Below, one piece after another: positions 12,444 through 38,587 of a stretch of 64,000 bases of DNA (position 1 is its first letter; each line of letters starts with the position of its first letter). Under the pieces are notes generated by a model. That model saw nothing but the letters and a program-made list of their open reading frames with translations, did no database searches and was not told the origin of the DNA. The DNA comes from Nitrosopumilaceae archaeon. GTDB lineage: Archaea > Thermoproteota > Nitrososphaeria > Nitrososphaerales > Nitrosopumilaceae. The translations under genes were made by a program, and so were the position numbers. The DNA is taken from assembly GCA_965200155.1 (NCBI GenBank), contig CBDATR010000009.1, positions 32,001 to 96,000 of the forward strand, written 5' to 3'.

Positions 12444-12839
12444 CTTTCCATTAGCGGCGGAATCTAGTCGGACCATAGTGACCTGCACGTCCAGAGTATG
12501 AGAGTACGCTGGATCTTTCCATTAGCGGCGGAATCTAGTCGGACCATAGTGACCTGCACGTCCAGAGTATGAGAGTACGCTGGATCTTTCCATTAGCGGC
12601 GGAATCTAGTCGGACCATAGTGACCTGCACGTCCAGAGTATGAGAGTACGCTGGATCTTTCCATTAGCGGCGGAATCTAGTCTGACCATAGTGACCTGCA
12701 CGTCCAGAGTATGAGAGTACGCTGGATCTTTCCATTAGCGGCGGAATCTAGTCTGACCATAGTAATCTGGTAACTATGGTAGCTTCCCACTTGAACCGCA
12801 ATGTCCATTAGCGGCGGAATCTAGTCTGACCATAGTAAT
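12444..12839. repeat. CRISPR-like neo-array: six copies of a ~36-bp segment of transposase DNA separated by 35-bp insert A (x4) and 37-bp insert B
   Basis: CTTTCCATTAGCGGCGGAATCTAGTC(G/T)GACCATAGT at 12444, 12515, 12586, 12657, 12728; a second 36-bp duplication at 12731-12766/12804-12839. Confidence 0.9.
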
Positions 12840-13214
12840 GGGCAAAATTTCCATATCCTGGCAAAATTTCATATTATTCCTGGACGCGTATACCCCAGTC
12901 AGCAACATCCTGCAGTACTCATTGCATATTTGTGGTTCTTGGTATGACTTGCCGACATCTGATTGTTTCTCACTTTCATCGGGTAGTTCCAGTACCCTGC
13001 CCACCAGCTCCCTTATGGGGGCCACCATAAGTCTCTAGATCACAAATTCAGCATTTGTCACACAGAATCCCCGTCTTACATACCATAGACTTATGGAACA
13101 TGTTATAGTAACGACGAGTCACCGGTTTGATCATCGGTGACTGCTGCATCTGCTTTCAACATCCACCAGCACTGGTGAATCTCTGTTCCACCTTCAATTT
13201 GTAGCCAATCCATT

Positions 13215-13315
13215 GTATAAGTTCACGTCTTCCGGAATCTTATGCACAAATCACATTAACTAGAACAACCTGTTCCATCAGTTATCCGTAAATTTAGACA
13301 TAGGTGAACTCATAC
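13215..13315 (+). mobile_element. MITE family 1, variant B, inside the IS5 remnant
   Basis: TSD AATCCATT. Confidence 0.93.
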
Positions 13316-13771
13316 AATCCATTTGCCACGGCTACAAGTTTCCAGTCCGGTGAATCATGGTCCGGGTTTCATCGCGATTGGTACTGGCGAGTCGCCATTA
13401 TTGATATCAAGATCTTGCATACATTGGTATATTGTAGAGTAGTACGGGGTTTGTCCCCGTTCAGCATAACCATAAAAACCAGATAGCTGCCGGTATCTAA
13501 TGCCGTGTACATTGCAGCGGGAACCATCATCCGGGCATCCAAATGGTGCACCCTCCTTGTTGGGCTTTCTAATACCACGAGGGGTCAGGCTCAAATGCGA
13601 GACTCATTCCCTGTAGGACGTACTTGGTGAATACTAGGAATATTCCCGGATATTAATGCTTGAATCTAAGATTGTAACAAAGTGGACGGAAATGAACAAA
13701 TTATTCCTCATAAGTGTGATTTGCCTACATAACTTGACCAAGTTATGCAACAATCTACACACTATAGAGCA

Positions 13772-13781
13772 TTTTTATAAA
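13772..13781 (+). promoter_or_regulatory. Archaeal TATA box upstream of srp19
   Basis: TTTTTATAAA about 20-30 bp before the ATG, which fits a leaderless transcript. Confidence 0.55.
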
Positions 13782-13800
13782 CTCATGACGAACACAACAC

Positions 13801-14091
13801 ATGAAGGATTATGACGCAATAGTGGTATGGACAGACTATTTCAACAGGGCGCTATCCCGTTCCGGTGGGAGGCGGATGGGCCGTGACATGTGCATGCATG
13901 ATCCATCTGTAACAGACCTGTCCGAGGCGGCCAAAAAAGCTGGATTGAAGGTAATTGACACGGCGCCGGATGCCCGGTATCCGCGCCGTCCACATCTGCG
14001 ATCCGGATATATCTCCCTTACAAAAACAACACCCAAGACAAAGGCATTAAGGAGAATAGCCTCCAAGCTGGTAGCTCAAAAAAAGCGATAG
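13801..14091 (+). CDS. srp19: Signal recognition particle protein SRP19
   Basis: VVWxDYF..LSRSGGRR..P....L..AA..LG..YPR motif; usual neighbour of gar1/tfb. Confidence 0.9.
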   Translation: MKDYDAIVVWTDYFNRALSRSGGRRMGRDMCMHDPSVTDLSEAAKKAGLKVIDTAPDARYPRRPHLRSGYISLTKTTPKTKALRRIASKLVAQKKR

Positions 14092-14278
14092 GTAGGTTTA
14101 CTGGCACAATGATATGGGAATATAGAAAGAGGGCGTGGAAAATTGCAACCATGTCCATAACGAACATCATGTCTAAGGCGCCGGTACCATGCTAGAACCA
14201 CAATGTAGTGACTACAAGTCTTAGTAACAAATTCTACATCTGCCACAATTCCTGTCTTGTATTGCGAGTTCCATGACT

Positions 14279-14386
14279 GTAACCGTTTAGTTCACCCCTG
14301 AACGCGAGCATGTCCGTTTTTGCCTTTCTATCATTACCATGCCCGTGGATTTACCGTCTCGGTTTAAACGCGACCTAAAAAGTTAC
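14279..14386 (+). mobile_element. MITE family 2, copy 2
   Basis: Imperfect TIR; perfect 8-bp TSD CCATGACT. Confidence 0.85.
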
Positions 14387-14399
14387 CCATGACTCTGTG

Positions 14400-14700
14400 A
14401 CAGATTTATAAAGCACCAGTACCATAGTAAACCGTACTGAAATGACACATACCGTAACACTCTCACTAAAACCGAGCAAAAAGTCTGCCTTGCCGGTTCA
14501 TAACACGAACCGGTATGAGGAACCACGCTTAACTAGGGACAGAGGAACTGGTTCTCTCCACAGAGTCCATCTGTTAAGAGGCGTCAGTTATGACGCGCCA
14601 AAGTCCAGTCACACCTTATCGGGGCGCCAGTGGGCAAGGACTATGGAGCGCGCCATGTCATTCAAGTATGGCTGACGCCGGTGACAAAGAAAAACAAAGC
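14400..14700 (+). mobile_element. Internally deleted tnpB-derived remnant with structured 3' region
   Basis: CACGCTTAACTAGGGACA (RLTRD) shared with tnpB pieces at ~24397-24414 and ~25890-25908; TATA box at 14405; several hairpins. Confidence 0.5.
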
Positions 14701-14757
14701 TAAAGGTCAAAAAAAACACACAGTATACTTTGTAAACTAATATGACATTGCCATGTT

Positions 14758-14997
14758 ATGAAAGAGACAGGAACAATATTACATGTAGCAAAAAGTGGTA
14801 GAGTTATTATCCGGCTTGCAGGGTCGGCTCCTCATGGTGACATAGTATATGATGCCAAGGGGGCCCGGGTGGCTCGGATACGGGAAATCATAGGTCCAGT
14901 GTCAGCCCCCTATGCATCCGCGGAGATACTCACCAATAACATCAAAAAGTATCTGGGACAGAGCGTTTTATCAAAGATGGAGGGCGCCCGTTCATGA
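14758..14997 (+). CDS. gar1: H/ACA RNP protein Gar1
   Basis: G.ILHVAKSGRVII..VYD..G..IGPVSAPY motif; ATGA overlap with tfb. Confidence 0.88.
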   Translation: MKETGTILHVAKSGRVIIRLAGSAPHGDIVYDAKGARVARIREIIGPVSAPYASAEILTNNIKKYLGQSVLSKMEGARS

Positions 14998-15932
14998 TGG
15001 CCAGGGCGCAGTATTGTCGCGAGTGCCGATCACCCCTAGTTGACGACTTTGATAATGGCGAGGTAGTATGCACCCGGTGCGGTATTGTTGTAGCGGATCA
15101 TATGGCATATTCGGGACCGGAGTTTAGTAATAGTGAGAACATGATGACTCGGGCTTCGGGTCAGCTGATTTACTCACAGCATGACTTGGGCATAACCACG
15201 GACATTGACGGCAGGAACACAGACTATGGCGGCAAGCCCATAAAGCACTCCATGGTGTCCAACATAACGCATCTAAGACAGTGGCAGCAACGCATAAGAG
15301 TAAACGGAACCAGGGACAGGCGCACCACAAGTGTACTTACCAAGATAAGCGACTTGTGCAGTACCATGAATCTACCAAAGAACGTATTGGACACCGCCTC
15401 CTTGGAGTATCGCAATCTGGACAGTCGCGTTGATTTGAAGAACAAGTCGGTGGTGGCCATGTCCGCGGCAGTGCTGTACATTGCATGCAAAAAGTGTGGA
15501 GTCATACGCTCCATTGAGGATATGGTAAATGTCATGTGTACGGGCAGGGATGCGCGCACAAAAGTAAAGCTGGCAGGCAGGTACTATCGTACACTGGTAC
15601 TAGCGGTGGGCAGCAAGCACAACACACTCATGCCAATAGAGAAGTACATATCCAAGATATCCAACAACATACGGGGCGAGGTCCGCATGGAGAGGCTAGC
15701 ACTACAGCTTGCCAATAAAACCCAAAACCATGCCATTATGGAAGGCAAGGATCCCAGCGGCGTGGCCGCGGCATACCTGTACATATCGGCCATACTGCTG
15801 GGGCGCGATATAGTACAACAGGACATAGCAGAGGCGGGCAACGTGACCGATGTTACGGTACGCAGCAGGTGTAAGGAGATTCTGGACAAGTATGATATCA
15901 CAATAACAGTAAGACCGTTGGCCCTAAGATAA
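14994..15932 (+). CDS. tfb: Transcription initiation factor IIB
   Basis: CxxC..GEVVCxxCG zinc ribbon, two cyclin repeats, GKDPSGVAAAYLY, VTDVTVRSR. Confidence 0.95.
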   Translation: MMARAQYCRECRSPLVDDFDNGEVVCTRCGIVVADHMAYSGPEFSNSENMMTRASGQLIYSQHDLGITTDIDGRNTDYGGKPIKHSMVSNITHLRQWQQRIRVNGTRDRRTTSVLTKISDLCSTMNLPKNVLDTASLEYRNLDSRVDLKNKSVVAMSAAVLYIACKKCGVIRSIEDMVNVMCTGRDARTKVKLAGRYYRTLVLAVGSKHNTLMPIEKYISKISNNIRGEVRMERLALQLANKTQNHAIMEGKDPSGVAAAYLYISAILLGRDIVQQDIAEAGNVTDVTVRSRCKEILDKYDITITVRPLALR

Positions 15933-16113
15933 GGGCGGGCAATAATTCTTCATCTTTTTAGGAGGTGTATGGGGGGTACCCCTTGTGTTGCACAAGATAA
16001 ACCAAAATAATACGGAAAAGCTGATCCCCGTATCTGCATTTCTTGGCAGAGTGACTTACACGCAGAGATATAGATCGTGATGAATAAATACAAAGAACTC
16101 ATTCCGATAACAA

Positions 16114-17253
16114 ATGCATAATCTTGCGATTTGTCTGGGTGTACCACTACTTGTTATAGCCGGTTTGGGATTATCCCATGCACAGATGGTGACCCTAGGG
16201 GGCGTCTTTAATACGTCTGGTTGGCCGGATGACGAGAGAAGCCAATACGCCGCAGAGCTGGCCATCGCGGACTTTAACGTGTATTCATCACAGATAGGCT
16301 CGGACATATTCATAGTAATGGTTGCAGAAGATACGGAGGATGATGATTCTATTGCTCTAAGCAAGATTCAGTCCCTTCAAAATCGGGGCATTGATCTGAT
16401 AGTGGGTGTGCCATTCAGTAATTATATCAACGTGTCATACAACTACATACATGACAATAACATGCTGGTCATATCCCATGCAGCCCAGGCTACGGAGCAG
16501 GAGATAGACGATAACATATTCCGGATCCTGCCAAACTCCGGCAAGGAGACACCGGTCCTAAGCTCCGCCATACAGGGTACGGGTATTGATACACTGGTTA
16601 CTATATCCCAGGGTAACCTGTGGGGAAATTCCATAGTGAATGGGATAAATGATACATTTGACGGCGAGGTCATAAAATCCATACAATATACAAATGACAC
16701 AGATTTTTCGCAGGAGATATCTATAATGAATGACGAGGTGGGCAAACTTGTTGAGGAACGGGGGGCAGACCGGATTGGCATACTCTTTATGGGCAGTGAG
16801 GAGGTGATTGCTATAATACAGCAGATGGCACCCTATGAGAGCCTGAATAGTGTAAGATGGTTTGGTACAGACAGACAGGCCGCGCACAAGTATATGCTGG
16901 CCGATCCAGTAACGCTGGGCTTGGCAGAGGCGGCCCAGTTTACGGCAACCACACTCGCCGTACCGGATAATGTCCTGAATCGTGCCGTGGACGAGAGATT
17001 CCTGGAAAAGTATGGCGTCATGCCCAGTACGTATAACTATGCGGCGTATGACGCTGTCTGGCTCTTGTCCTCGACCATACTGCACACACAAAGCACCGAT
17101 GTGGACACGCTGGTGAATGCATTACCGCTTGTGGCATCGCACACTGTGGGCGCCTCCGGGTACTTGGAGCTAAGCGAGGGCGGTGATCTGAATAATGCGG
17201 ATTATCAGGTATGGCAGATAGTGAACGGCGAATGGGTACAGATTCCGCGTTAG
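16114..17253 (+). CDS. ABC transporter substrate-binding protein (LivJ-like)
   Basis: Signal peptide, DDNIFRILP, YAAYDAVWL, GASGYLEL; paralog of 5067-6224. Confidence 0.85.
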   Translation: MHNLAICLGVPLLVIAGLGLSHAQMVTLGGVFNTSGWPDDERSQYAAELAIADFNVYSSQIGSDIFIVMVAEDTEDDDSIALSKIQSLQNRGIDLIVGVPFSNYINVSYNYIHDNNMLVISHAAQATEQEIDDNIFRILPNSGKETPVLSSAIQGTGIDTLVTISQGNLWGNSIVNGINDTFDGEVIKSIQYTNDTDFSQEISIMNDEVGKLVEERGADRIGILFMGSEEVIAIIQQMAPYESLNSVRWFGTDRQAAHKYMLADPVTLGLAEAAQFTATTLAVPDNVLNRAVDERFLEKYGVMPSTYNYAAYDAVWLLSSTILHTQSTDVDTLVNALPLVASHTVGASGYLELSEGGDLNNADYQVWQIVNGEWVQIPR

Positions 17254-17524
17254 CTGGCATGGCGCTTTTTGAAAACCATTCTGGCACAGGATTCCTGAAC
17301 AGTACCGTAGTGTGATCTCACCTGTGTATACACGATTAACGGTTGGTAATGTGATCAAGATACAAACTCATTGTCAGAGTGTCTGGGTATGTGATTCCAG
17401 AATTACCCTCTTCTTGGTGGCGACCAAATAACATGGATTCCCAAGAGAACTTGCGACGATCCAAACTTATATTCTATAGAAAGCATTGTGGTTAATGGGG
17501 CAAGTTCTGTCCGCTGATAAATGT

Positions 17525-18128
17525 ATGATTGCAAGGGTCTGGGACAAGGAGTACAGTAATGGAAGGTATGCCGACGACTCCCCGCCGGAATTTGTCCAAT
17601 AATCATGGAATGGTTAGAGCAGAATCCGGAGATTCGCAATTCCAGAGGTCTTTACGCTGGATGCGGGAATGGTCGCAACTATGTGACACTGACTCATTCC
17701 GGACTGGACATTACCGGACTGGATGTGTCCACAGTGGGCCTGGAACAGATAGTAACCAAGGATCCGTCGCTGGCCTCAAAGCTTGTGCAGGGGGACATGA
17801 TTGATCATGCCGGAATGTACGGCTATATCATAGCGATACAGTCATTTCAGCATGAGGATACTACAGGGGTCCATGAATATTTCAGAAAGATTGCCAGTAT
17901 GCTGAGAGCGGGAGGCATGCTCTTTGTGCGTGTGAATGCTGTCAGTACTGATATTAATCACGCCCATGTCATAACGGAGCAGGCAAGCGGGGGCTTTATC
18001 ATTCTGTACAAGAACGGACCCAAGAGCGGATTGCGCATACATTTCTTCTCAAAGGAAGAGTTACTGAGTATGGTCGCGGCTTCCGGCCTTGTGGTGAGAC
18101 ATGTAACGATGGTAACAGCTAATCATAC
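17525..18128 (+). pseudogene. Class I SAM-dependent methyltransferase, frameshifted and MITE-interrupted
   Basis: WDKEY N-terminus out of frame with the GCGNGRN..GLDVS motif I region; C-terminus cut by the MITE. Confidence 0.7.
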
Positions 18129-18227
18129 GTATGAGTTCACGTCTTCCGGAATCTTATGCACAAAAGAACCGGTTCTTTAACTGTCGCGATCAGTTGTGCG
18201 TAAATTTAGACACAGGTGAACTCATAC
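18129..18227 (+). mobile_element. MITE family 1, variant A
   Basis: TSD AATCATAC. Confidence 0.95.
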
Positions 18228-18292
18228 AATCATACTGCAGGACGGGGGTCATGGTCCCAGTGGGAGATTGTAGCAAGGCGGGAGGTAATTCC

Positions 18293-19187
18293 ATGACTGT
18301 TCTGGAACGAATAGTCATGGACAATGAACAGTCTGCGCCACTGTCTGACAAGTTATCATTGTATGCACTTTTGCTACAACTGCGACGGCCAAGCTGATAC
18401 GGGCAATAACAGCACTGGGCGCCAGCGTGTTATACGTTCCCATCTCGTAATGGTGATTCCATATCTGACATCACCAATAATCCGCGCGTCACACCGGTAG
18501 AGACTGTCTCAGAAGCGGTGAGTCTGCATCTCTCCCATGCCTACATAATACTGGAGGAGGACATGTGTATAAGCAGGGTTATCCATGATAACACGGCCGC
18601 TTACAAATGGAAGAATACACTCTACACCATAGAGCAGACCACTAGAGGAATTCACAAATTTGGGAAAGCCAGACTTCTGTACCCGGTAGTTAACTTGGCC
18701 GAGACCAATCTCAAGCGCGAGCTGGGGAACTACATGGCCACCCAGGAATTCATACTGTCATTACTTGTAATACGGGAGTCCCTTACCCTATCGGGCAAGA
18801 GTGTCCTGGTACTGGGCATGGCTCAGTGGGTAGCGGCGTATGGGCACTGTGCGCCTCGCATGGGGGTGTCGTTACAGTTGCAGAAGAGGACTCTGCGACA
18901 CGCTGTTGCAGCATCTCGTGGATACAGGACCATTCACGCGCAGGATATTGACACTATCCTTCTATACCAGGATGTGATAATCTCCTGCACGCAGAACAGT
19001 CATGGCGATACCCCGGGGTTGGATCAGATAATGTTAATGAATCATAATTCCATAATAATTAATGCGGGCATTGAGACCGGCGAAATATCTCAGGATGCAC
19101 TGATTCCCGGTACCTACAAGAGGAATGGCGCAACCATTACCAAGAATGATGACAGTTGTGTTCTGTGCAATTTTGAAAAGATGGGCA
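18293..19187 (+). pseudogene. Adenosylhomocysteinase-like pseudogene
   Basis: EQTTRG..LLYPVVNL..KRELGN..LSGKSVLVLG..IINAG resembles the AdoHcyase core/NAD-binding region; stops and frameshifts. Confidence 0.55.
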
Positions 19188-19683
19188 GTATGAGTTCACG
19201 TGTTTAGATTGGTGTAATGCATTCTACGTATGAGTTCACGTCTTCCGGAATCTTATGCACAAAAGAACCGGTTCTTTAACTGTCGCGATCAGTTATGCGT
19301 AAATTTAGACACAGGTGAACTCATACCATTCTACTACAGAAAGGCCCGGTCTGGACTTTAACTGGCCGGGAATCATTCCCGGAACACGTCCAAGAATGAT
19401 TCAATCCCCCTCAGTAATTTGCGCGGACGACCCGCAACGATTCAGGGATGATCCGGGCGTCCTGATAGCGCCCAGGTGCGGATACACACCATTCTGTGAC
19501 TCATTCCATGGTAGCCATCCATATGAACTACTTACATCATCCAAATCCAGCCACTATTCTCTACTATTCCACATGTACCATGAATTGTTCCCAGGCATAA
19601 TCGGCCCTGGAATGGTCGCCCCTTTATTTACCGCACCCAATTGGAATCATTCCCGCTCACTACTGCCGCACATTCTAGCTGGC
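19188..19683 (-). mobile_element. Decayed longer element with the MITE-1 terminus; possible IS1595-like parent
   Basis: GTATGAGTTCACGT at 19188 followed by non-MITE sequence; minus-strand fragments VVHMDGYHGMSHRMV and GIESFLDVFR. Confidence 0.4.
19228..19326 (+). mobile_element. MITE family 1, variant A
   Basis: TSD CATTCTAC. Confidence 0.95.
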
Positions 19684-19691
19684 ATTAATTC

Positions 19692-19783
19692 GTATGAGTT
19701 CACGTCTTCCGGAATCTTGTGCACAAATCACATTAACTGTCGCGATCAGTTGTGCGTAAATTTAGACACAGGTGAACTCATAC
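19692..19783 (+). mobile_element. MITE family 1, variant C (92 bp)
   Basis: TSD ATTAATTC. Confidence 0.95.
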
Positions 19784-19847
19784 ATTAATTCCGTTATGTG
19801 TACTCTGTCGGGACAGGATATACGCCAGCCTTACTGTCTTTTGGCGA

Positions 19848-20168
19848 TTGGACGGCTAGAACAGACCCGTGGCTATGCCGCCCCATGGTTGGACGGCTAG
19901 AACAGACCCGTGGCTATGCCGCCCCATGGTTGGACGGCTAGAACAGACCCGTGGCTATGCCGCCCCATGGTTGGACGGCTAGAACAGACCCGTGGCTATG
20001 CCGCCCCATGGTTGGACGGCTAGAACAGACCCGTGGCTATGCCGCCCCATGGTTGGGCGGCTAGAACAGACCCGTGGCTATGCCGCCCCATGGTTGGGCG
20101 GCTAGAACAGACCCGTGGCTATGCCGCCCCATGGTTGGGCGGCTAGAACAATTTCGTGGCTATGCCGC
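19848..20168. repeat. 41-bp tandem repeat, about 7.8 copies
   Basis: Unit TTGG(A/G)CGGCTAGAACAGACCCGTGGCTATGCCGCCCCATGG. Confidence 0.95.
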
Positions 20169-20227
20169 ACTCTCATACAAGCCGGGTTGGCATCTGAACG
20201 CGTGAGACAACTTAAACTGAGAAAAAA

Positions 20228-22025
20228 TTAACTGGTGATGGTAAAGGTTACAGTGTTGGACATGGTATGAGTTCCTGAGGGTCCAGGGGTTCTCACAAAT
20301 GCCGTATATGTGTCAGCATCTAAGTCTTCGAGGGTATAGGAGTTAGTTGATACGCGTGCTGCTCCGCCAGTAATGACTCGGTCTCTGTCCCCATCAAATA
20401 CCACCACGATATAGGTAGTATCTGCCAAGTCGTTCCAGCTTAGAGTAACATCATTGCCACTTATGGTTCTACTTAGTGTTAAAGATGTCTGATCGTCAGG
20501 TGATGTCTGATCTTCACTGCTACTAGATGATGTAGTGAACTTTAGGGTTCCCAGAATTCCAGCGGGAACACAGTCTGTAGACACAATTATGGTGTATTCA
20601 GTATCAGGTGAGAGGCCCGTAATTGTTAGAGGGTTTGATGTGAACACATGTAAATCAGCACTTGAAGGCCCGGAAGAGGTTTGGAAGATATCGGCGATTG
20701 TACAGGCTATGCTCTTTGCGTCATAGTCCTCTGAGGCGACCTCTATAGTTACAGAGGTGCTATTTTTAGTTTTGATTTGGGGTGGATCAATACCAGGATC
20801 ACTTACGGTAAGTACAAATTCATCACGTATGATGTCGCTGCCAGCAGTTGCTTTGACACGTAGAGTGTATTCTCCTGCTGCTGTTCTATCAGGCTCCAAA
20901 AGTAGGATACCACCGGATATTCCTGCAGATCCAGGTAATGTCTTGTCGTTCAGGACCTTTAAATTATATTTGATGTCCCTATCATTATAATCATTTGCAT
21001 TTAGCTTTATGTAACGTGTTGTACCCTCGTCCATGGTAATGTCTGGTATAGTATTAGTGAATCTGAGGATGGAATCAGTATTGACATCGAAGGTTTCTAA
21101 ACTTACACCTTTGCATTCGTTGACCACACTGATGGTGTAATCAGTATTAGGTAAGAGGTTTGTGATTGTCATGTTACCATGAATAGTCAGAGATTCGGTC
21201 TGCATAAGCTTCCATGGGGAAGATTCAAAGACATCAGCTACTACACAAAGAGGTGAGTCTTTATAATTTGTTGGTTCAGTTCCAGGTACTTCGATAGTTA
21301 TAGAATTTGGCGTTCTTTCTGAGATACTAGGTGGATCTATAACGTCGTCATTTACGGTAAGTACAAAGTCCTCATGTATGGGATCGCTACCACTAGTTGC
21401 TGTGACACGCAGTGAATATTGTCCACTATCGGTTCTGCCAGGAAGCAAAACAATGTGGTCTGTAATTGCACCGTCAGAAGATATGGGAGCTATGTATGCA
21501 AATCCGGGTGCAGCTGTGCCGTCCTGTTTGGTTATTGCATATGTGACAGAATCACTCGCAGGGGTTACACTGAGTGGTATGGTTTTCTTCTCGGCCTCAT
21601 TCATGGTAATGTCTGGTATAGTATTAATGGAACTAGGGGGAGGGACTTTTGTCTTAAAGAATACAAGGTTGGACTTGACAAAGCCGTCTCCAATGGTTCT
21701 GACAAATACGCTATATTGGGTGTCAGGAGTCAGTCCGGTAATATCATATGTGTCTCCTGAAGTGCGTGTTACCCCACCGGGAATTCTTTCTATATATCCA
21801 TCACGTAACGACACGACATATTCGGTATCGCCTGGGTACTGGTGCCATGTAACTGTGGCACTAGTGGAGGTGGTGTCAGATACATATATTATGATAGACT
21901 CGATTGTTTGAGCAAACGCAAGATCAGTGGCCGGTACTAATACTAGTAAAAGTGCAAGGAGGAGACCCCCCCCCCCCGATTAAAGCTTTAAGTACGATAT
22001 TGTTACGGTTAGTAGATTGTAACAT
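20228..22025 (-). CDS. Secreted fibronectin type III / Ig-like repeat protein, frameshifted at a G12 tract in the signal-peptide region
   Basis: ITGLTPDTQY/ITNLLPNTDY/ITGLSPDTEY FN3 motifs, IPDITM..G.Y.LRV.AT repeats; ATG 22025 joins the main frame if the tract is G11. Confidence 0.8.
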
Positions 22026-22078
22026 TTTGATAAAATATGGTCTACAATAATATAACTATTGTCATCACATTAGTTTGT

Positions 22079-23721: not shown

Positions 23722-23742
23722 TTATCTCAAATACGACTCTAA

Positions 23743-29470: not shown

Positions 29471-30410
29471 ATGAATCTATTGCTGGCTCTAGCACCACTA
29501 GTGGCCGGTACCGCCCATTCCCAGGAACAAACACCTGATCAGTACATGCTGGAATTGATCAACCATGAAAGAGAAATGGCCGGACTACAGCCAGTTTCAC
29601 TTGGTAATGATATGGCGGCCCAGCAACACGCTGAAAACATGCTGGAACACTGCTACTTATCCCACTGGGGACTGGACTGCATGAAACCGTACATGCGATA
29701 ATGGGACAGGTGTCAACGCCGAGAACTTATCCGGCCTCGACTATTGCATCACTCATGATGACTGGTTCGTTCCCGTATCACCATTCCAGGACTTGGAAGA
29801 GATCATGGATGGTTTCATGAACAGCCCGGGACACCGTGATAACATACTAAACGAGCACCGCACCCATGTCGACCTGGGAATCACACATGATGATTATAAC
29901 ATGAGAGTCGTCCAACACTTTGAGTATAGTTACGTGACATTCACAGAGGCATCCATTAATGGCACCACTCTAACATTGAGCGGTCATTCCATGAGTGTTA
30001 TAGACAGCATCTCATTATATCATGACCCATTACCATACAACCTGACACGAGGACAAGTAGAGAGGACATACTGCTATGACAATGGAGTGATGGTGGCCTC
30101 CATAATACCGCCCCCCGTACCTGGAACAGGAATCAGAGACGTTAATGACACGGTGCCCAGACCCATATGATGTAGAGCGGGACGCCAGCTTCCCAGACAC
30201 CATAACATGGCGGCCGGAATACCATGAGGAACTGGTGATGATTCCCTTCATAGAGGCAGAACAATGGAGGGATGACTTTTCCATTACAGCTGACATCACC
30301 ACTATTGGAGCGGCACGGGCCGGGTGTCTATACCACTCTTCTATACGGGGATGGCATTATAATCGGTCAGGCCACCATTATGGACCCGACTTTTATTGAA
30401 CGAGTAATCG
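29471..30410 (+). pseudogene. CAP/SCP-domain secreted protein, frameshifted
   Basis: LINHER..GLQP..AAQQHAENM..SHWG and FMNSPGHRDNIL motifs in different frames. Confidence 0.75.
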
Positions 30411-30507
30411 AGGAAGTAATGGTTTCACTACATTTCATGCCGGAATCCGCCATTCACATGAAGGACAAGACCGAGATTAACATTGACTTGGGTGCAGAAC
30501 GGGTGAG

Positions 30508-30617
30508 GGCGACCATTGCCGGAATGCATCCGGGAATACATGACCCTACAACACGGAAAGAACTCACTCGAGCACCTTTCGGCGACCATTGCCGGAATGC
30601 ATCCGGGAATACATGAC
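30508..30617. repeat. 37-bp direct duplication flanking a unique 36-bp insert
   Basis: GGCGACCATTGCCGGAATGCATCCGGGAATACATGAC at 30508 and 30581. Confidence 0.92.
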
Positions 30618-30999
30618 TGGGAGCGGTGGGCCAAGAATAGAGCAATCGAGAAAATTATTCTAGGCCGCCGATACATAGAGCCGGAAGGAACAGAGCCATT
30701 CCTGGCCGCCGTTATATTATGCAGGAGAATGAATAACCATAAACTGATAGGCCGGTTCTCACATACAGAAGCACTATACTCTATCCACATGATGCAGGGA
30801 CGAAATGTATACATGACTCCCATATGCCGGGGAGGTATTAGACACAGAACCAGGCAACGATAAAGGTCTGTATACGTTGCATATCTTCCAATATTTACCA
30901 CTGGCGGTAGGCCTTGGAAAGACATGGAAGTTGATAAACCAACATATCGACAGGGGCTTTGTCCATTTGGAGCCGGACAAGTTCCTCAGATTGATGCGG

Positions 31000-31100
31000 G
31001 CATGAGTTCACCTGTGTCTAAATTTACGCACAACTGATGGAACAGGTTGTTCTAGTTAATGTGATTTGTGCACAAGATTCCGGAAGACGTGAACTCATAC
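31000..31100 (-). mobile_element. MITE family 1, variant B, inside the PriL-like gene
   Basis: TSD TGATGCGG/TGATGCAG (1 mismatch). Confidence 0.93.
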
Positions 31101-32790
31101 TGATGCAGGATGCCATTACACAGTACATCAGGAACCGTATTGAGGGAATGACCAGTATACCAGCCATTGTAGTACCAGATGATATTGAAAAGTGGTGCCA
31201 GAACCATAATGAATGGCGACACGCCCCCATGCGTAACAAAGTGCCTTGAAATGATGTCACAGGGCGGGAATTTATCACATTCAGGCCGCTTCCTTGTGGT
31301 CATATATAATCCGAATGCCAGAATCGATATTCCGTGTATTAGTGACCTGTTCCAGGGCGCCCCGGACTATAACAAGAAGATAACAGAGTATCACATCAAC
31401 CAGATAAAGAGGAGTGGTTACAAGGTTTCCCAGCTGCTCCTGGATTCGTTCTAATACATTATGTCCGGGTTGTTCCGCGACACATCCGACAAAATATACA
31501 AAAAACTAGATTGGCGGCTCTCTTCCTTCAAGTATGTCGGTGTATCATCTCGCGGAAGAACAGGCTTCTTGATCGTATCTTTCCTGACTCTACCAGCATG
31601 TCATATTCATACTGCCCCATAATGCAACCACCGGAGTATCTTACTTCCATTATACATAGTGATCAATGTATATAAGTTATATTCATTTGTATTAAATTCA
31701 GGGGAGCTCAAGAACATCATCGGCACAGTGCTTGTGAACCCAGATGTTGGCGGAATTCCTTGTCTACCTTTATCATGTCATCACACTTTATCGCAAAGTG
31801 GGCTTTCATGGTTATATACAGATATATTCTTATTATGGCGCTGTAAAGAAATCAGTACATGTTAAAAAAAGAGTACATGGATCCTGCTGTGTTTCTAGTC
31901 AGTTAGTGATGGAATGATTCACGATTTAGGAGAGATCCTCCTCAATAGGGTAGCCCCAGCTCACGGATTGATGTTTTCAGTGGATTAATGAATATTGAAT
32001 GATTCGGGCGCCACTACATTTTCGGTACCGGATAGATTCGCCGTCCAGTCATCCAGGATTCATCATGTATAGGGTCTGCGGGCTACTGATCAACTGTATG
32101 TCAAACTTCAATGACGGTTCCAGAAGTGTTCTGGTATTATGAATGCGGAACGAAATCTCCCAGCCCTCATCCAACGATACTATGATGGTATTGTGACTCT
32201 TCCGCTCTATCTCTTTTAGTCTGGTTGGCAGTTTGATATGATTCACACGTGACATGGGCTTTCGCCTGCCATCACCATGCCCTAATGAGCCATTCAGATT
32301 ATACCCCTCTATTCTTACAAGATTACACTTGTCATCATTACTTTGTAAAAATCGTGCATCCCAATCAAATACTGGAGCAGCCGTCCGGGAACCATTCCGT
32401 TACTCTCGGTCAGTCTGGTCATTACTGAATGCATCCAGGATCGGCTCATACATTTGTGAATCCTTTTCTGTCACATCTCTCCAGTGTGTGATTCCTTGGG
32501 ACTGCCACTCCTGTACTTGATCAAAAATCATCCAGATATCATTCATGTATTCACGAGAGCAGTTAACCCCGACCCACTTTACCAAAATCTATGTTGGGCG
32601 ATAACCGGGAATGCTTCAATGCTTTGTGGTTATTCTTTGCAGAGAACCCAATCTCCCAGGAGTCATCAGTTCTGGCGTTAATGACATCTCGGACATCGCC
32701 GTCCTTGCCGCGGTAGTCCGGCTGAATCTCTATCACACTACCACTGGATATCATGGGTTCCAGATTCATTATGTGAATGATGGTCGCCCT

Positions 32791-32904
32791 AGCTACCATA
32801 CTGTAATCATTCCTCTCATTTTCTGCCATCAAGGACTCGTGGGGTGTCCAAAACGATGCATTTGCAGCTGCCATACTGTAATCATTCCTCTCATTTTCTG
32901 TCAT
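32791..32904. repeat. 35-39-bp direct duplication (1-2 mismatches) flanking a ~36-bp insert
   Basis: AGCT(A/G)CCATACTGTAATCATTCCTCTCATTTTCTG(C/T)CAT at 32791 and 32866. Confidence 0.88.
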
Positions 32905-33006
32905 GGTGACCAATGCGTTCTGTGTTATCTCGTAAGATTCATCCTGGACTAGGCTGGCCCTGTTCCCGATGCAGTGTTCCAGCGCGTCTGCCAGTGCACA
33001 CTCAAA

Positions 33007-33098
33007 GTATGAGTTCATCTGTGTCTAAATTTACGCACAACTGATCGCGACAGTTAATGTGATTTGTGCACAAGATTCCGGAAGACGTGAACTCATAC
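33007..33098 (-). mobile_element. MITE family 1, variant C, inside the REase gene
   Basis: TSD CACTCAAA. Confidence 0.95.
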
Positions 33099-33132
33099 CA
33101 CTCAAAGGCCTTGTCGTTCAGGTGCTGTCTTG

Positions 33133-33952
33133 TCATGATTCCAACCCGTTTGTTACATTATGACTGAGTATCAACAACTCCCTGGAATGCTTATTCCTGG
33201 ACATGCCATACTTCCACTGTGGGGATATGATGGCGTAATTATGGTACAGGTGGCGCACCTAGAATCGGATAAGATAGTAGACGGGCTGCCCGCAGATATG
33301 ATGGTGTAATTATGGTACAGGTGGCGCACCTCTGGTGAGTCATTGTACGATAGTATCCAATTATCATACCGTTCCAGTAATGTGGCAAGTCCCTCATGGT
33401 TAAAACCGGTTGTGGTTCTATACCCGTACAGGTTGGTCCTTATATGGGGGATCAAGATAGATGAAATCATCATTCCACATCGTTCCCATGGACTGGTTAA
33501 AATCTGCTAACTGAACGGTCATGTTGGAACAACGGAATTGTTCCAGTCTCTCTATGGATGACTCTGTGAATCGTGGATGACCCGGCGACATACCGCCTCT
33601 CATAGTACTGCCAGAGAATGAGCAACGATTTATGACAAAGAATATAGCCGCTCTGGTATATTTTGACGGGGAATGATACTGTTGTAATTGGTAGAAGCGT
33701 TCCTTCTCTAGCAGATAATACTCCCGTACTAGATTGGCCAGTCTCTTCGGGTCATGGAACAGGCACTGCCAGAATTCCACTAATGGTTCAAAGTTGTCAT
33801 AGCCGTGAATAGTGATACCATTCCGGGCGCATGAGATTTCGACTGCCCCCCATGAAAGGTGAGTGTAATATTTTGACATGATCAGGGATATATTGCATGA
33901 TTTTCTTGACACCGCGGGTCTTGCCGCCTGCGTATCTCAGGGGGGAAATCAT
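33133..33952 (-). pseudogene. Dam-like (D12 class) N6-adenine DNA methyltransferase pseudogene
   Basis: SPLRYAGGKTR, SPFMGG, FVINRCSFSG, FIYLDPPY, WILSYND; ATGA overlap with the REase start; frameshifts. Confidence 0.85.
33224..33331. repeat. 37-bp direct duplication (1 mismatch) flanking a unique 34-bp insert
   Basis: GATATGATGG(C/T)GTAATTATGGTACAGGTGGCGCACCT at 33224 and 33295. Confidence 0.92.
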
Positions 33953-34093
33953 GGCGGCCATGTCACAATCGCTCTATTTATGCGGCCGCATCAGGTCAAA
34001 AGTGATTCATACAGAGCCGGGCACGACCACTAGAACGGTTACCTTTTCTCAATCCATGTATCCTTTTTTCAACATGTACCTACTTCTTTACGG

Positions 34094-34192
34094 GTATGAG
34101 TTCACCTGTGTCTAAATTTACGCATAACTGATCGCGACAGTTAAAGAACCGGTTCTTTTGTGCATAAGATTCCGGAAGACGTGAACTCATAC
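34094..34192 (-). mobile_element. MITE family 1, variant A
   Basis: TSD CTTTACGG. Confidence 0.95.
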
Positions 34193-34230
34193 CTTTACGG
34201 CGCCTTCCAGAGTCAAAGAATGTTTCTGGT

Positions 34231-34764
34231 TCATGAGGCTGGATTCCAGAGATGCTCCGGTATGTTATCATCATGGTTGACCTTTCGGGCCAGCACGAAC
34301 AGAAAGTCAGAGAGACGGTTTGTATAGCGAATACATTCGGGGTTTATGTGCTCACTCTCTGGTATACTGGTGATGTGGGTCTCGGCGCGCCGGACTATAG
34401 CCCTAGCCAAATGTAGTGCAGAGCCGGTATGGCCGCCGCCGGGCAGTATAAAGTTGGTCAGGGCTGGCAGTGTTGCATCCATTTTATCAATCATCCTCTC
34501 CAGAGAGTCGGTCATGGATGCGGTTACCTGCATGCCAACGTTATCGGGATTTGAGAGGTCTGCGCCCAGTATGAATATGTCCTTTTGAATGGAATGGATT
34601 ATGTCACGAACGGTTTTAGTTGAGTTGCAAGCGGCAAGTCCCAGCATGGCGCTGGCCTCATCCAGTGTACCGTATGCCATAATGCGGGGGTCTGATTTTG
34701 GGACCCGTTGGCCGCCGTACAGTCCCGTGTGGCCGGAATCGCCGGTCTTTGTGTATATCTTCAT
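34231..34764 (-). CDS. Cob(I)alamin adenosyltransferase, PduO type
   Basis: MKIYTKTGDSG.T, AYGTLDE, FILPGG, AR..RRAE, NRLSDFLF. Confidence 0.93.
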   Translation of the reverse strand: MKIYTKTGDSGHTGLYGGQRVPKSDPRIMAYGTLDEASAMLGLAACNSTKTVRDIIHSIQKDIFILGADLSNPDNVGMQVTASMTDSLERMIDKMDATLPALTNFILPGGGHTGSALHLARAIVRRAETHITSIPESEHINPECIRYTNRLSDFLFVLARKVNHDDNIPEHLWNPAS

Positions 34765-34785
34765 GTTTGGAATGGTGTGGAGAGT

Positions 34786-34803
34786 GATATTAAATTTATA
34801 AGA
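34786..34803. promoter_or_regulatory. Divergent promoter region (TATA-like boxes) between adenosyltransferase and reductase
   Basis: ATATTAAATTTATAAG in a ~50-bp gap between divergent starts. Confidence 0.5.
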
Positions 34804-34815
34804 GAAAGTGAATTT

Positions 34816-36618
34816 ATGATGGTGATGAGTAAACTTGGTATAGAACAGGTTGCAGGGAAGCGTATACCGGATGTGAACTGGTCCCGAATGGAGGAAGCCA
34901 ATGATTTTGCAGAGACAGTAAAAAAATTCCGCCAGGGCCAGTATCCGGAAGACATGTTCCGCCGGTATAGATTGCAGCATGGCGCGTACGGGACGCGCAT
35001 GACATCAGACTATGCAATGATACGCATCAAGATACCCGCGGGCCAGGTATATCCCATACAGCTAAAGAGGATTGCGGAGATGAGCGAGTACTTTTCAATT
35101 GGTAGTGCTCACATATCCACTCGGGAGAGTATACAACTACACTGGGTGGTATTAGAGGATGTATCAGAAGTGTTGCGGGGGTTGTCAGAAGTAGGCCTGA
35201 CATCAAGGGAGGCCTGTGGCAATGCCATAAGGAATGTAATGTGTAGCCCTACTGCCGGGGTGTGCCCCAGGGAAGCCTTTGATGCCACTCCCTATGCCAA
35301 GGCGACTGCCAAGTTCTTTTTGAGAAACCCTATGAACCAGAATCTGCCCCGGAAATTCAAGTTCACATATTCCTGCTGCGAGGAGCACGGTATGGCAAGG
35401 ATAGTGGACGTGGGATTGATACCCCAGACCAGAATGGTGAATGGCAAGACACAGCGGGGCTTTAGAATATTTGTGGGCGGCGGCTTGGGAAACAAGTCCT
35501 ATGTGGGACACCAGCTGGAGGAGTTCACACCCCAAGAGAATGTCATATATACGGCCATGGCGGTGGTCAGGCTCTTTGACAGGATGGGGAACAGGACCAA
35601 TCTGGCACGTAACCGCCTGAGGTATTTGGTGGCACAGGTAGGATGGGAGAAGTTCCGGGACATGGTACTAAAGGAGCGGGACGTGGTACGAGCCACTCAG
35701 TCTGCCATAGTGAAACTGCCCCTGGAGGATTCGGAGCCGGAGATTAGGCGACCCATCAGGGTGACAGAGGAGAATCAGGGTCAGGAGCCCGGTTATGCAC
35801 GGTGGCTTACAACCAATACCTTTGCGCAGAAGCAGGAGTCATATTATACGGTGTTTGTTGCCATGGAGGCGGGTGATATTACCGCCACCCAGATTGTGGC
35901 ATTATCGGATATAATACAAGAGTATTCTGCCGAGGGTGTCGGCAGACTGGGCTTTGTACAGAATATGGCCCTGCGGTATGTGCACGAGAGCGACTTGCCG
36001 GAACTATATTCCAAGTTGTTACAGAATGGGTTGGCTCGGTCCGGTGCGCTGAGCATGGCCGCACCCATAGGGTGTTCCGGGACCACTTCCTGTAATCTGG
36101 CGCTGACAAACTCGCACAGATTGGCAAAGGAGATACAGCGAAAATTCCTGGAGCTTGGACTGGACCAGGATGATGACTTGCGGGAGGCCAGCATAAAGAT
36201 AAGCGGTTGCCCCAACTCGTGTGGTCAGCATGGCATAGCCACTGTAGGACTGTTTGGTGGCGGGGGCCGGTTGGGCCATGACATGTATCCCTCATATATG
36301 ATGTCCATAGGGGGCAGGGCGGATCAGGATGCCATGCTAGGACATAATATGTTAAGGGTACCGGCAAAGCGCGTCATACCGGTGATATTGGAATTGGTAG
36401 CAATGTTCCGGGAGAGCAAGAATGATAATGATGATTTAAAGACATGGATACACCGTGTCTGTATGGGTGCGGATTCTATGACGGTACAGGATATACGGAA
36501 GCGGCTCAGCACATTGACCAATCCGCCCACCATGGAGGAGGATCCTGACTTTTACGCAGACTATGGTAGTGATACGTCATATCACACCAAGACCGGTCGT
36601 GGCGAGTGCGCCGCGTAA
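34816..36618 (+). CDS. Ferredoxin-dependent sulfite/nitrite reductase (siroheme, 4Fe-4S)
   Basis: LPRKFK, CSGTTSCNLA and SGCPNSCG Cys motifs, C-terminal GRGECAA. Start at 34816 or 34825. Confidence 0.9.
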   Translation: MMVMSKLGIEQVAGKRIPDVNWSRMEEANDFAETVKKFRQGQYPEDMFRRYRLQHGAYGTRMTSDYAMIRIKIPAGQVYPIQLKRIAEMSEYFSIGSAHISTRESIQLHWVVLEDVSEVLRGLSEVGLTSREACGNAIRNVMCSPTAGVCPREAFDATPYAKATAKFFLRNPMNQNLPRKFKFTYSCCEEHGMARIVDVGLIPQTRMVNGKTQRGFRIFVGGGLGNKSYVGHQLEEFTPQENVIYTAMAVVRLFDRMGNRTNLARNRLRYLVAQVGWEKFRDMVLKERDVVRATQSAIVKLPLEDSEPEIRRPIRVTEENQGQEPGYARWLTTNTFAQKQESYYTVFVAMEAGDITATQIVALSDIIQEYSAEGVGRLGFVQNMALRYVHESDLPELYSKLLQNGLARSGALSMAAPIGCSGTTSCNLALTNSHRLAKEIQRKFLELGLDQDDDLREASIKISGCPNSCGQHGIATVGLFGGGGRLGHDMYPSYMMSIGGRADQDAMLGHNMLRVPAKRVIPVILELVAMFRESKNDNDDLKTWIHRVCMGADSMTVQDIRKRLSTLTNPPTMEEDPDFYADYGSDTSYHTKTGRGECAA

Positions 36619-36769
36619 TTGTTGTGCATAAACAGAAATTTCTACTAGCGTTTGTTATGGTACAATGGTGCAATGCTGCATGAAAGTGTAGTATGAAGAG
36701 CCTAGCAGGTCTGGCGATGATGGATGAGCATATGTAATTCGATTTCTTTAACAAGTATGGTTTGGGGTT

Positions 36770-38419
36770 ATGGCTATGGCCGTAAATGATATTATGATAC
36801 CGGTTCGGATGTTGACGCAGTATGTTTATTGTAACAGGTTGGGGTATATGGAATGGTTACAGGGTGAGTTTGAGACGTCAACAGACGTGGAACAGGGCAG
36901 ATTCGTGCACCGCAATGTGGATACCATATCCGGTACAAAGAAAATCCAGCAGGATGGGGAGATACACGCCACATCCGTTATGATATCGGATGTGAAACTT
37001 GGGCTGGTAGGAAAGCTGGACTTGCTTGAGATTGAGGGTCGCGCCGCGGTGCCAGTAGAATACAAAAAAGGCAAGGTACCCGATATCCAAGGAAATGTGT
37101 ACGATAGTACACTGGTGCAGGTTTGTGCGCAGGCACTACTCTTACGCGCAAACGGTTACAAGTGCACCGAGGGCGTGGTATATTATGTGGCGTCACGGCG
37201 CCGGGTTCGCGTGATTATAGATGACATACTGATAGCAAAGACTTTGCAGGCCATATGGGACCTAAAGGAGATGGTCAAGAAGAATATCATACCGCCACCT
37301 TTGGTGGATAGCCCAAAATGTCCGCGGTGTTCACTGGTGGGCATATGTCTTCCTGACGAGGTAAATCTGTTGTCAAACCAAAAGATAAAGGTAGACTCGG
37401 TGCGTCGTATGTATCCCATCAGGGCAGATGCAGTTCCAGTACATATACAGGAGCAGGGTGCATCTGTCTCTGTAACAGGAGATACGCTACAGGTGAAATC
37501 TACCGATGGGCAGAAACGGAAAATACGCATAATCGACGTGTTGGACTTGACTGTATATGGTAATGTTCAGATAACCACACAAGCACTACGTCGCTTGCTT
37601 GAGCGTGGCATATCCGTTTGCTATATGACATATGGAGGATGGTTCGTGGGCATGACCAACGCGGGTATGAACAGGAATATCGATTTGAGAATCCATCAGC
37701 ACAGGGTGTATGATGACAAGATTTCATCGCTAGATATATGCAAAAATATTGTTTATGGTAAGATAAGAAACTGCATGACGCTCTTGAGGCGCAACCACAA
37801 GTCTGATGCTACCAGGGTATTGGGAGAGATGTCGCAGATGGCAGATAAATCTCGGGGATGTAAAAAATACGAAACGCTCCTAGGTATAGAAGGAATGGCC
37901 GCCAGACTGTATTTTTCAAATTTTGCCGGTATGCTGAAAGACGATTCGGGGTTTGATTTTAAGCAGAGAAACCGGCGGCCGCCCAAGGATCCCGTTAATG
38001 CCATACTGTCGTTTTTGTATGCGTTGCTGGCCAGGCAAGCGACAGTTACCGTGATGGGGGTGGGGCTGGACCCATATATCGGGTATCTACATACGCCACA
38101 TCATGGCCGTCCATCACTGGCTCTGGATATGATGGAGGAGTTTCGCCCAATCATATGCGATAGTGTGTGTATTAGTATGATAAATAATTCCATGCTTGTC
38201 CCATCGGATTTTACAGATGCGGCCATGGGCGTATCGATGACGCAGAACGGACGGCGACGGGTTCTGGATGCCTTTGAAACACGCATGGACACTACCATAA
38301 AACACGAGATACTGGGTTACTCGGCAAGCTACAGACGCATACTGGAGACGCAGGTAAGGCTGCTGGCAAGGCGTGTTACAGGAGAGATACAAGCATACCC
38401 ACCTTTCAGGGTGAGGTAG
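36770..38419 (+). CDS. cas1: Cas4-Cas1 fusion (type I-G)
   Basis: Cas4: YCNR, GKLD..PVEYK, Q...Q, CPRCSL..C. Cas1: LLGIEG.AA..YF, RRPPKDPVNAILS..Y, GYLH, LALDMMEEFRP. Confidence 0.95.
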   Translation: MAMAVNDIMIPVRMLTQYVYCNRLGYMEWLQGEFETSTDVEQGRFVHRNVDTISGTKKIQQDGEIHATSVMISDVKLGLVGKLDLLEIEGRAAVPVEYKKGKVPDIQGNVYDSTLVQVCAQALLLRANGYKCTEGVVYYVASRRRVRVIIDDILIAKTLQAIWDLKEMVKKNIIPPPLVDSPKCPRCSLVGICLPDEVNLLSNQKIKVDSVRRMYPIRADAVPVHIQEQGASVSVTGDTLQVKSTDGQKRKIRIIDVLDLTVYGNVQITTQALRRLLERGISVCYMTYGGWFVGMTNAGMNRNIDLRIHQHRVYDDKISSLDICKNIVYGKIRNCMTLLRRNHKSDATRVLGEMSQMADKSRGCKKYETLLGIEGMAARLYFSNFAGMLKDDSGFDFKQRNRRPPKDPVNAILSFLYALLARQATVTVMGVGLDPYIGYLHTPHHGRPSLALDMMEEFRPIICDSVCISMINNSMLVPSDFTDAAMGVSMTQNGRRRVLDAFETRMDTTIKHEILGYSASYRRILETQVRLLARRVTGEIQAYPPFRVR

Positions 38420-38587
38420 GTTGCGAAGCCTGTATATGCCCTCCACAAACTTGGCGGCGCTACTGTGCCGGAACACCTTTCAGGGTGAGGTAGGTTGCGA
38501 AGCCTGTATATGCGACTCAGGAGATGCCCGGTATCATAATGGTGAGGTATCTTTCAGGGTGAGGTAGGTTGCGAAGCCTGTATATGC
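38403..38587. repeat. CRISPR-like mini-array at the cas1/cas2 junction: three 37-bp repeats, two unique 37-bp inserts
   Basis: CTTTCAGGGTGAGGTAGGTTGCGAAGCCTGTATATGC at 38403, 38477, 38551. Confidence 0.95.

Follow-up and report, generated by a model that had tools for sequence, protein, structure and literature searches.

Insertion of spacers outside a CRISPR array has been described in Escherichia coli, where off-target integration yields 'neo-CRISPR' loci (Nivala, Shipman & Church 2018, Nat Microbiol 3:310, as related in the accessible portions of 10.1101/148544, PMC7054753 and PMC6698737), and the available portion of the first of these sources (10.1101/148544) calls the evidence for natural off-target integration 'circumstantial' in two other species. 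Our analysis concerns a 64,000-nucleotide stretch of DNA (the window; positions 32,001 to 96,000 of contig CBDATR010000009.1, assembly GCA_965200155.1) from a Nitrosopumilaceae archaeon, which holds a type I-G CRISPR array with its adaptation genes and, outside the array, five loci at which ordinary chromosomal DNA is duplicated around a spacer-sized insert. In our interpretation these loci, and others like them across the genome, are scars left where the resident type I-G Cas4/Cas1-Cas2 integrated spacers at non-canonical, off-target positions, and we put the probability of this reading at about 0.93.

The anatomy is like that of the E. coli neo-CRISPR loci, at which Cas1-Cas2 inserts a spacer outside the array, a repeat-length target is duplicated and a new repeat-spacer-repeat unit results. 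As far as the accessible text of PMC7054753 goes, those events were rare and belonged to a type I-E bacterium with overproduced Cas1-Cas2 and supplied oligonucleotides, whereas here the system is of type I-G, with fused Cas4/Cas1, in an archaeon from the wild, and the genome retains at least 62 loci, with half of the inserts self-derived, no detectable protospacer adjacent motif (PAM), recurrent sites and one site that differs between samples. For Pyrococcus furiosus Cas1-Cas2, the accessible part of PMC6698737 reports in vitro off-target integration set by repeat-border motifs and spacing, a rule of the same kind as the one described below, although that work used a plasmid assay and a 30-bp repeat and ours deals with chromosomal scars and a 36-bp spacing. 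Ectopic acquisition in Streptococcus thermophilus likewise places spacers in a non-canonical position, away from the leader-proximal repeat, but in the events described in the part of PMC7999890 available to us the targets were genuine repeats within a genuine array, whereas here they are non-CRISPR DNA. The type I-U (now I-G) Cas4/1-Cas2 of Geobacter sulfurreducens belongs to the same family of Cas4/Cas1 fusion and Cas2, and its predominant spacer length is 36 bp; according to the accessible portion of Almendros et al. 2019 (PMC6547450), an upstream TTN accompanied 50% of unique spacers and about 70% were plasmid-derived, integration was followed at the array, and mutants of the Cas4 domain lost PAM selectivity, whereas the Cas4 domain of the archaeal fusion appears intact.

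Spacer-sized inserts in duplicated chromosomal DNA

A sequence-only reading of the window had pointed out five non-array loci with seven distinct inserts; direct-repeat and tandem-repeat scans together with sequence inspection recovered every one of them, and their duplicated segments are mutually unrelated. None of the five is assigned a strand. Locus A (12444..12839) contains six copies of a 36-nt host segment (12447-12482, 12518-12553, 12589-12624, 12660-12695, 12731-12766 and 12804-12839), in which a 71-nt unit of repeat plus spacer has been tandemly amplified fourfold, leaving one spacer in four copies; this amplified spacer has no further match within its own genome. A second, distinct spacer at 12767-12803 matches C10:414241-414277 at 35 of 37 positions. 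At locus B (30508..30617), two 37-nt arms (30508-30544 and 30581-30617) enclose a 36-nt insert (30545-30580) identical to C51:486-521 (36/36), and the target exists in two paralogous copies, 91-92% identical, that lack the interruption. Locus C (32791..32904) consists of two 39-nt arms (95% identical) around a 36-nt insert that equals C10:478599-478564 (36/36); it forms a 75-nt in-frame addition within a gene fragment for a HaeIII-like restriction endonuclease on the minus strand (Pfam RE_HaeIII match for 32563-33018(-)), and the open reading frame (ORF) reads through it. Locus D (33224..33331) has two 37-nt arms around a 34-nt insert (33261-33294) with no self match in its own genome, and adjoins a fragment of a D12-class methyltransferase. 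At locus E (38400..38587) a 36-40-nt segment occurs three times and encloses two inserts, 38440-38473 and 38514-38547, which match C10:291150-291117 (34/34) and C24:421310-421346 (36/37). It sits on the junction of the cas1 stop and the cas2 start, and both genes remain open because the cas1 stop survives in copy 1 and the TTG start of cas2 in copy 3. Five of the seven window inserts are thus self-derived.

The assembly (2.38 Mb in 51 contigs, 87.6% complete, a metagenome-type draft) was scanned on all contigs for direct repeats with a period of 22-300 by X-drop extension from an exact seed of 18, and canonical-repeat pairs, low-complexity arms, tandem units with an arm at least as long as the period and a protein-repeat region at C10:347-349 kb were dropped. 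This revealed 326 non-array interspersed direct-repeat pairs, 73 of them with a period of 71-75. Arms of 33-42 nt occur in 116 pairs; the period of 61 of these falls within 71-75 and every other period is represented by at most two. The commonest arm lengths are 36 nt, in 19 of 63 pairs, and 37 nt, in 29, the array repeat measuring 36 nt and the extra base of the 37-nt arms being what chance extension would add; the gaps are 35-37 in 46 and 34-38 in 55 of the 63 pairs, and the modal array spacer is 37 nt. The genome-wide distribution is therefore not flat, with a sharp peak at arms of 36-37 and gaps of 34-38. After filtering, 65 pairs at 62 loci remained; their distinct inserts number 61 and their targets fall into 50 unrelated sequences, so that the high density proposed from the window extends to the whole genome: about 26 scars per Mb, or one off-target insert for about every 4.7 array spacers. 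This count is a lower bound, as the filter missed at least three loci with a tandemly amplified unit and one nested event; one or two of the listed loci are doubtful, C9:12517 in a repetitive stretch and C24:370009 with a period of 68 being possible false positives. The two arms are identical in 49 of the 65 pairs and differ by one mismatch in 15 and by two in one, therefore most events, but not all, would be recent.

Comparison of the inserts with their own genome by BLAST showed that they are unrelated to adjacent DNA and that about 30 of the 61 distinct inserts match distant positions of the same genome, mostly at 100% over 34-40 nt. Matches of at least 28 nt outside the listed loci were found for 31 inserts; for two of these the best matches are further copies of the same locus, and one of the two additionally has a true source of 36 nt with one mismatch. 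In the array, by comparison, 0 of 288 spacers have a genuine self match, and the only one with any non-array match (1/288) matches an off-target insert: spacer 58 (window 43210-43246) shares 26-28 nt with the insert C25:4797-4831 of locus C25:4760. This overlap implies that one foreign sequence was captured twice, once on target and once off target; the 26-nt core common to both had no exact match in viral_contigs or metagenome_contigs. The self protospacers are unevenly spread, with 16 of 31 on contig C10, which makes up 23% of the assembly (binomial p = 4e-4), at positions spanning 28-479 kb; this excess could reflect a hot zone, related to replication or copy number, in which prespacers are generated.

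Inserts copied from elsewhere in the same genome would also be expected of templated insertions or local duplications arising by double-strand-break repair or replication slippage, unrelated to CRISPR, and the amplified units at 12444 and C10:319716 demonstrate that these loci are indeed subject to recombination or slippage. Such processes, however, give no reason for a fixed 36-37-bp duplication combined with a 34-38-nt insert, or for the concentration of periods at 71-75; the inserts lack homology to adjacent DNA, the same coordinates were struck by different inserts, and the target ends carry the motif of the repeat termini. We consider this explanation very improbable.

Empty sites were found both in orthologs and in paralogs. 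The cas1/cas2 junction lacks the 148 bp of locus E in all five related Cas4g/Cas1g loci (72-76% DNA identity), in which the cas1 stop runs straight into the cas2 start. For 28 of the 62 loci, the sequence obtained by computed excision was found uninterrupted elsewhere in the genome at 79-100% identity, such paralogous empty sites existing because the targets lie in multicopy elements or paralogs. An ortholog comparison of the genes for serine hydroxymethyltransferase (SHMT) and dihydroorotate dehydrogenase (pyrD) placed the insertion regions in unaligned DNA or DNA flanked by insertion sequences (IS), the relatives being about 70-76% identical.

The loci were also recovered in assembled contigs of sequencing runs from two studies. 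A 9.5-kb stretch is present in eight runs, seven of them at 0.89-0.94 of the sampled words, and in runs X1, X5 and X6 contigs span the whole of locus D at 0-2 differences. In run X3 the contig departs from the others by at least 25 substitutions and three one-base insertions, all confined to 33257-33294, with arms and flanks unchanged. This different spacer implies that the site of locus D has been used more than once in the wild population, and the earlier description of the scars as fixed was too strong.

These recoveries bear on a further possibility, that chimeric contigs or faulty binning joined array-like fragments to the chromosome. The assembly is a draft of 51 contigs and includes low-GC microsatellite contigs that resemble host DNA, as such an artefact might suggest. 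However, what is duplicated in the arms is chromosomal DNA instead of the CRISPR repeat, the region recurs in seven runs of two studies with locus D spanned by independent contigs, and the paralogous and orthologous empty sites match the excision prediction exactly, which leaves an assembly origin with a negligible probability.

Recurrent targets and the resident type I-G system

Five target families in multicopy elements were struck at the same coordinates by two to five different spacers, 14 spacers in all, and one site in a gene for an IS66-family transposase received five. At least four loci hold two distinct inserts, and no single locus holds more than two distinct spacers. At the nested event G000:C43:103897-104077, the second target comprises half of an earlier arm and half of the earlier insert, and at C24:352098-352297 two adjacent targets overlap by 17 nt.

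The targets share features at their borders. In 94 half-sites read inward, T occupies position 3 in 44 and C position 5 in 40, T at position -3 occurs in only eight, and G or C is dominant at positions 11-12; the ends of the true repeat (ATTTC... and CCTTC...) both have T3, T4, C5 and G or C at 11-12. A five-position motif score, for which the positions were picked after seeing the data, exceeded all of 2000 random sets for both the better half-site (4.08 against 2.88, standard deviation (sd) 0.12) and the worse (2.76 against 1.82, sd 0.11). An a-priori test, identity to the canonical repeat, gave 13.1/36 against 11.43 in 1000 random sets (sd 0.30, maximum 12.51), and in an orientation-matched control canonical matches were enriched only at T3, C5, C11, C12 and C26 (z 3.5-4.1). 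Expectation-maximisation (EM) over strand and an offset of +/-1 raised the motif information to 8.86, against 7.56 (sd 0.19) in 20 random sets. As the orientations it gave conflicted with those based on the PAM, strand-symmetric half-sites and the control matched to canonical orientation were used, and the motif positions (T3, C5 and S at 11-12 from each end) derive from 47-50 natural targets. No leader-like upstream motif was seen at the targets. Such a pattern is consistent with an integrase that recognises short motifs at the two borders and gauges the 36 bp separating them.

The repeat-spacer-repeat architecture and the several two-spacer loci raise the question of whether these are genuine small functional arrays of other CRISPR systems, and the sequence-only reading had spoken of the integrase 'seeding new arrays'. 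Such seeding is seen only in the form of two-spacer loci: the new loci have no conserved repeat, and their 50 unrelated arms average 13.1/36 identity to the true one. Many lie within coding sequence (the SHMT and dihydroorotate dehydrogenase genes, the cas1/cas2 junction), none has more than two distinct spacers, and half of the spacers would target the host itself. That the loci are working arrays is therefore barely credible.

The genome encodes archaeal AmoA and an archaeal small subunit ribosomal RNA (SSU rRNA), and sponge metagenome is the label of the runs in which the region occurs; with the genes described here, these features point to a sponge-associated ammonia-oxidising archaeon with an apparently complete type I-G system. 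The fused cas4/cas1 gene (36770..38419, plus strand) encodes a 549-aa Cas4g/Cas1g, the presumed integrase, which matches NCBIfam NF049935 with 710.7 bits (cut-off 560) over profile positions 1-546 of 546 and retains every column invariant across 10 homologs in the alignment. Substitutions in Cas4/1 were considered as a cause of promiscuity and rejected: at positions invariant in ten homologs it carries six (V22L, A73G, P274S, G290A, A316C and F431Y), the other aligned sequences have 0-13, and it is no outlier. The 91-aa cas2 (38569..38844, plus strand; TIGR01573 35.4 bits, cut-off 24.5) begins at a TTG within copy 3 of locus E, and its N-terminus MRSLYMLCYDV aligns with MRNRYIVCYDV of the relatives. 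Between cas2 and the first repeat lies the putative leader (38845..39010, plus strand), placed by position beside cas2 because degenerate repeats (59980 and 60052) sit at the opposite end of the array. The array itself (39011..60087, plus strand) has 289 repeats of 36 nt and 288 spacers, of which 280 are 35-39 nt long.

The interference module follows with cas3 (61080..63791, minus strand; TIGR02621, 709 bits) and, beyond the window on the minus strand, cas5/6 (C9:95856-97451; TIGR02165, 284 bits) and cas7 (C9:98126-98641; TIGR02570, 75 bits); all three scores exceed their cut-offs and none of the genes has stops. The Cas4/Cas1 fusion with Cas2, the GSU0051-type Cas3, the Cas5/6 fusion (Csb2) and Cas7 (Csb1) are the features of type I-G (formerly I-U); TIGR04113, for the large subunit Csx17/Cas8u, had no match here and equally none in control genomes. 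Adaptation and interference genes flank the array on opposite sides and in opposite orientation, and a NirA/sulfite-reductase-like gene (34708-36618) lies directly upstream of cas4/cas1. The window loci are clustered upstream of the cas genes, with five in 27 kb (P = 8e-4 under a Poisson model with the genome-wide density) and four off-target loci within the 8.5 kb before cas2 (P = 8e-5), which may be an effect of proximity to the site where the integrase is made or acts.

Other repetitive DNA was observed in the same genome. An orphan leader end with one slightly diverged CRISPR repeat and no spacer lies at G000:C43:128228-128263 (minus strand), beside an IS copy near the contig end. An element of about 90-100 nt (starting GTATGAGTTCAC...) that resembles a miniature inverted-repeat transposable element (MITE) has dozens of genome copies, including copies at about 30768-31401, 32987-33303 and 33938-34254 of the window, and produces word-depth spikes of 2,000-50,000 in contigs; another element, about 560 bp long, is present more than 40 times, and the genome is heavily colonised by small mobile elements. 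A perfect tandem repeat of 41 nt (7.8 copies, window 19848-20168) is unrelated to CRISPR. Small contigs such as C2, C6, C8 and C18 have 36-41% GC and carry microsatellites and minisatellites, resembling host (sponge) DNA binned with the archaeon; no off-target loci were found on these low-GC, host-like contigs.

Relatives, the probable catalyst and the presumed fate of self-derived inserts

For comparison, 400 kb were scanned from each of four genomes of the same genus. Two genomes with cas4/1g (G005 and G001) had no scar-like pairs, a third with cas4/1g (G006) had three (arms 36-38, gaps 34-36; G006:C1:867871, 1037483 and 1129538), one insert of which has an 83% match elsewhere in the G006 genome, and G003 had one (36/36; G003:C4:29108). 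At the density of the present genome about 10.4 scars would be expected per 400 kb, and the probability of none is 3e-5. The process therefore does not appear confined to the present genome, but its density here is roughly tenfold higher. Extrapolated from its three candidates, G006 would have a similar ratio of off-target inserts to array spacers. When repeats are counted by a shared core in 10 genomes of the genus, the array is also the largest, with 289 repeats here against 75, 49, 7 and 0 in six others.

Insertion of transposons and casposons combines staggered attack on two strands with gap repair, giving a direct duplication of the target, and Cas1 integrases are related to casposases. 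An integrase other than Cas1, or a mobile element of casposase-like or unfamiliar transposase type, might thus have produced 36-bp target duplications around variable short cargo, in a genome rich in IS and MITE elements and in view of the scar-like pair in a relative with no detectable cas1. Unlike the cargo of a transposon or casposon, the insert here is a captured fragment of 36 nt, different at each site, and accompanies a 36-bp duplication; the inserts have no terminal repeats and no shared sequence, the lengths of duplication and insert equal those of the resident array, and the assembly contains a single cas1, with no second cas1 or casposase-like match. To our knowledge, no transposase combines a 36-bp duplication with variable short cargo, and we consider an agent of this kind very unlikely.

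Off-target integration by Cas4-Cas1/Cas2 is supported by the length peak, the distant sources of the inserts, the empty sites, the assembled contigs and the apparently complete I-G system, and of the refuting conditions set out with the sequence-only reading, all those examined favoured it, yet several observations weigh against it. That Cas4/1-Cas2 is the catalyst, and hence that the scars depend on Cas1, is a step we infer, and in G003 a scar-like pair occurs where no cas1 or such array was found. The overall likeness of the targets to the repeat is weak (13.1/36, against 11.4 at random), and an EM-based orientation of the events, which was rejected, conflicted with the PAM-based one and was unconvincing by eye. 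The read evidence consists of assembled contigs, which break at 36-nt repeats, and among those listed no joint of an empty site appeared; some 'foreign' inserts may derive from unassembled self DNA, as the genome is 87.6% complete. No array protospacer from which to read the PAM of the resident array was found in the organism's own genome or in the phage collection (whole array, 'near' mode). Among the self protospacers, TTN upstream occurs in four and NAA downstream in three of 31 rows, with about four expected by chance. Taken together, TTN/NAA flanks 7 of 31 self protospacers at integrations outside the array, unlike the pattern that the accessible part of PMC6547450 gives for G. sulfurreducens. 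No flank motif of the self protospacers was enriched. The PAM of this system may differ from TTN, off-target events may favour prespacers that were not PAM-processed, or the boundaries of the inserts may be blurred.

Under off-target integration, an integrase carrying a prespacer of about 36 nt would attack the two strands of ordinary chromosomal DNA 36 bp apart, at sites where both ends weakly mimic the ends of the true repeat (T3, C5 and G/C at 11-12, counted inward). Gap repair would then duplicate the 36-bp target on either side of the insert, the same reaction as at the leader-proximal repeat of the real array, and some sites were struck anew, which produced mini-arrays of two spacers, nested insertions and units amplified by recombination. 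The cell's own chromosome is the source of about half of the captured fragments. Off target, these self inserts would persist, as the new 'repeats' would go unrecognised in the processing of CRISPR RNA (crRNA) and so cause no autoimmunity, whereas self-derived spacers in the real array would be purged by the intact interference module. The new loci would accordingly be expected to yield no crRNA. With an interference module that appears intact, self spacers would be lethal in the array and harmless off target, where the arms would not be processable, and selection would explain the contrast between array spacers and off-target inserts.

A broader reading, which we hold tentatively and rate at slightly under even odds, is that the scars form a natural ledger of adaptation largely free of array selection. 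About half of capture would then take self DNA, with no PAM selection, autoimmunity would subsequently clear the array (0/288), and the integrase would be a continuing, site-biased insertional mutagen. Such a mutagen would add in-frame segments of 24-25 residues, split genes, strike its own operon twice and make multi-spacer proto-arrays, and differences in spacers from one host individual to another would still reveal its activity.

Effects on genes and significance for CRISPR adaptation

The length of the insertions resembles the outcome of a frame filter. It is divisible by three at 33 of 62 loci, compared with 101 of the 288 array periods (binomial p = 0.0026), with periods of 72 and 75 over-represented and those of 73 and 74 under-represented; this bias is not limited to long ORFs (8/15 against 25/47). 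Computed excision gave an ORF of at least 150 aa at 15 of the 62 loci, eight of which read through in frame and seven of which are split. The suggestion from the window that removing one copy and the insert restores the reading frame is thus borne out only partly. The insertions in the SHMT, dihydroorotate dehydrogenase and amidohydrolase genes lie at gene ends, outside or at the edge of the Pfam domain, and further struck genes include those of an Mrr-type endonuclease, IS66, TnpB and the HaeIII-like endonuclease fragment. These positions at gene ends, in frame or in mobile DNA imply a retained mutagenic load that is real but mostly mild. The proposed contribution to genome decay is accordingly present and only modest, most insertions being in mobile or fragmented DNA, at gene ends or in frame.

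The mechanism is already known from E. coli; what is new is the natural density, the self-derived inserts without a PAM, the archaeal I-G setting and the difference between samples at one site. A full-text search, with most subscription journals outside its reach, found no account of dozens of such scars in a natural genome, of off-target integration in type I-G, or of the phenomenon in ammonia-oxidising or sponge-associated archaea. A repeat-length duplication around a spacer-length insert is a simple signature by which other genomes could be screened, and 400 kb of G006 already gave three candidates.

If off-target integration is the correct reading, the intrinsic target code of the Cas4/1-Cas2 integrase could be read off some 50 natural sites. 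The raw ratio in which self and foreign DNA are captured and the fidelity to a PAM before selection, which array spacers cannot reveal, would become testable, as would the origin of new arrays and repeat sequences and the genomic cost of an active adaptation module. This archaeal genome would then be a rare natural record, dense and internally controlled, of integrase specificity and of the capture of self and non-self DNA.

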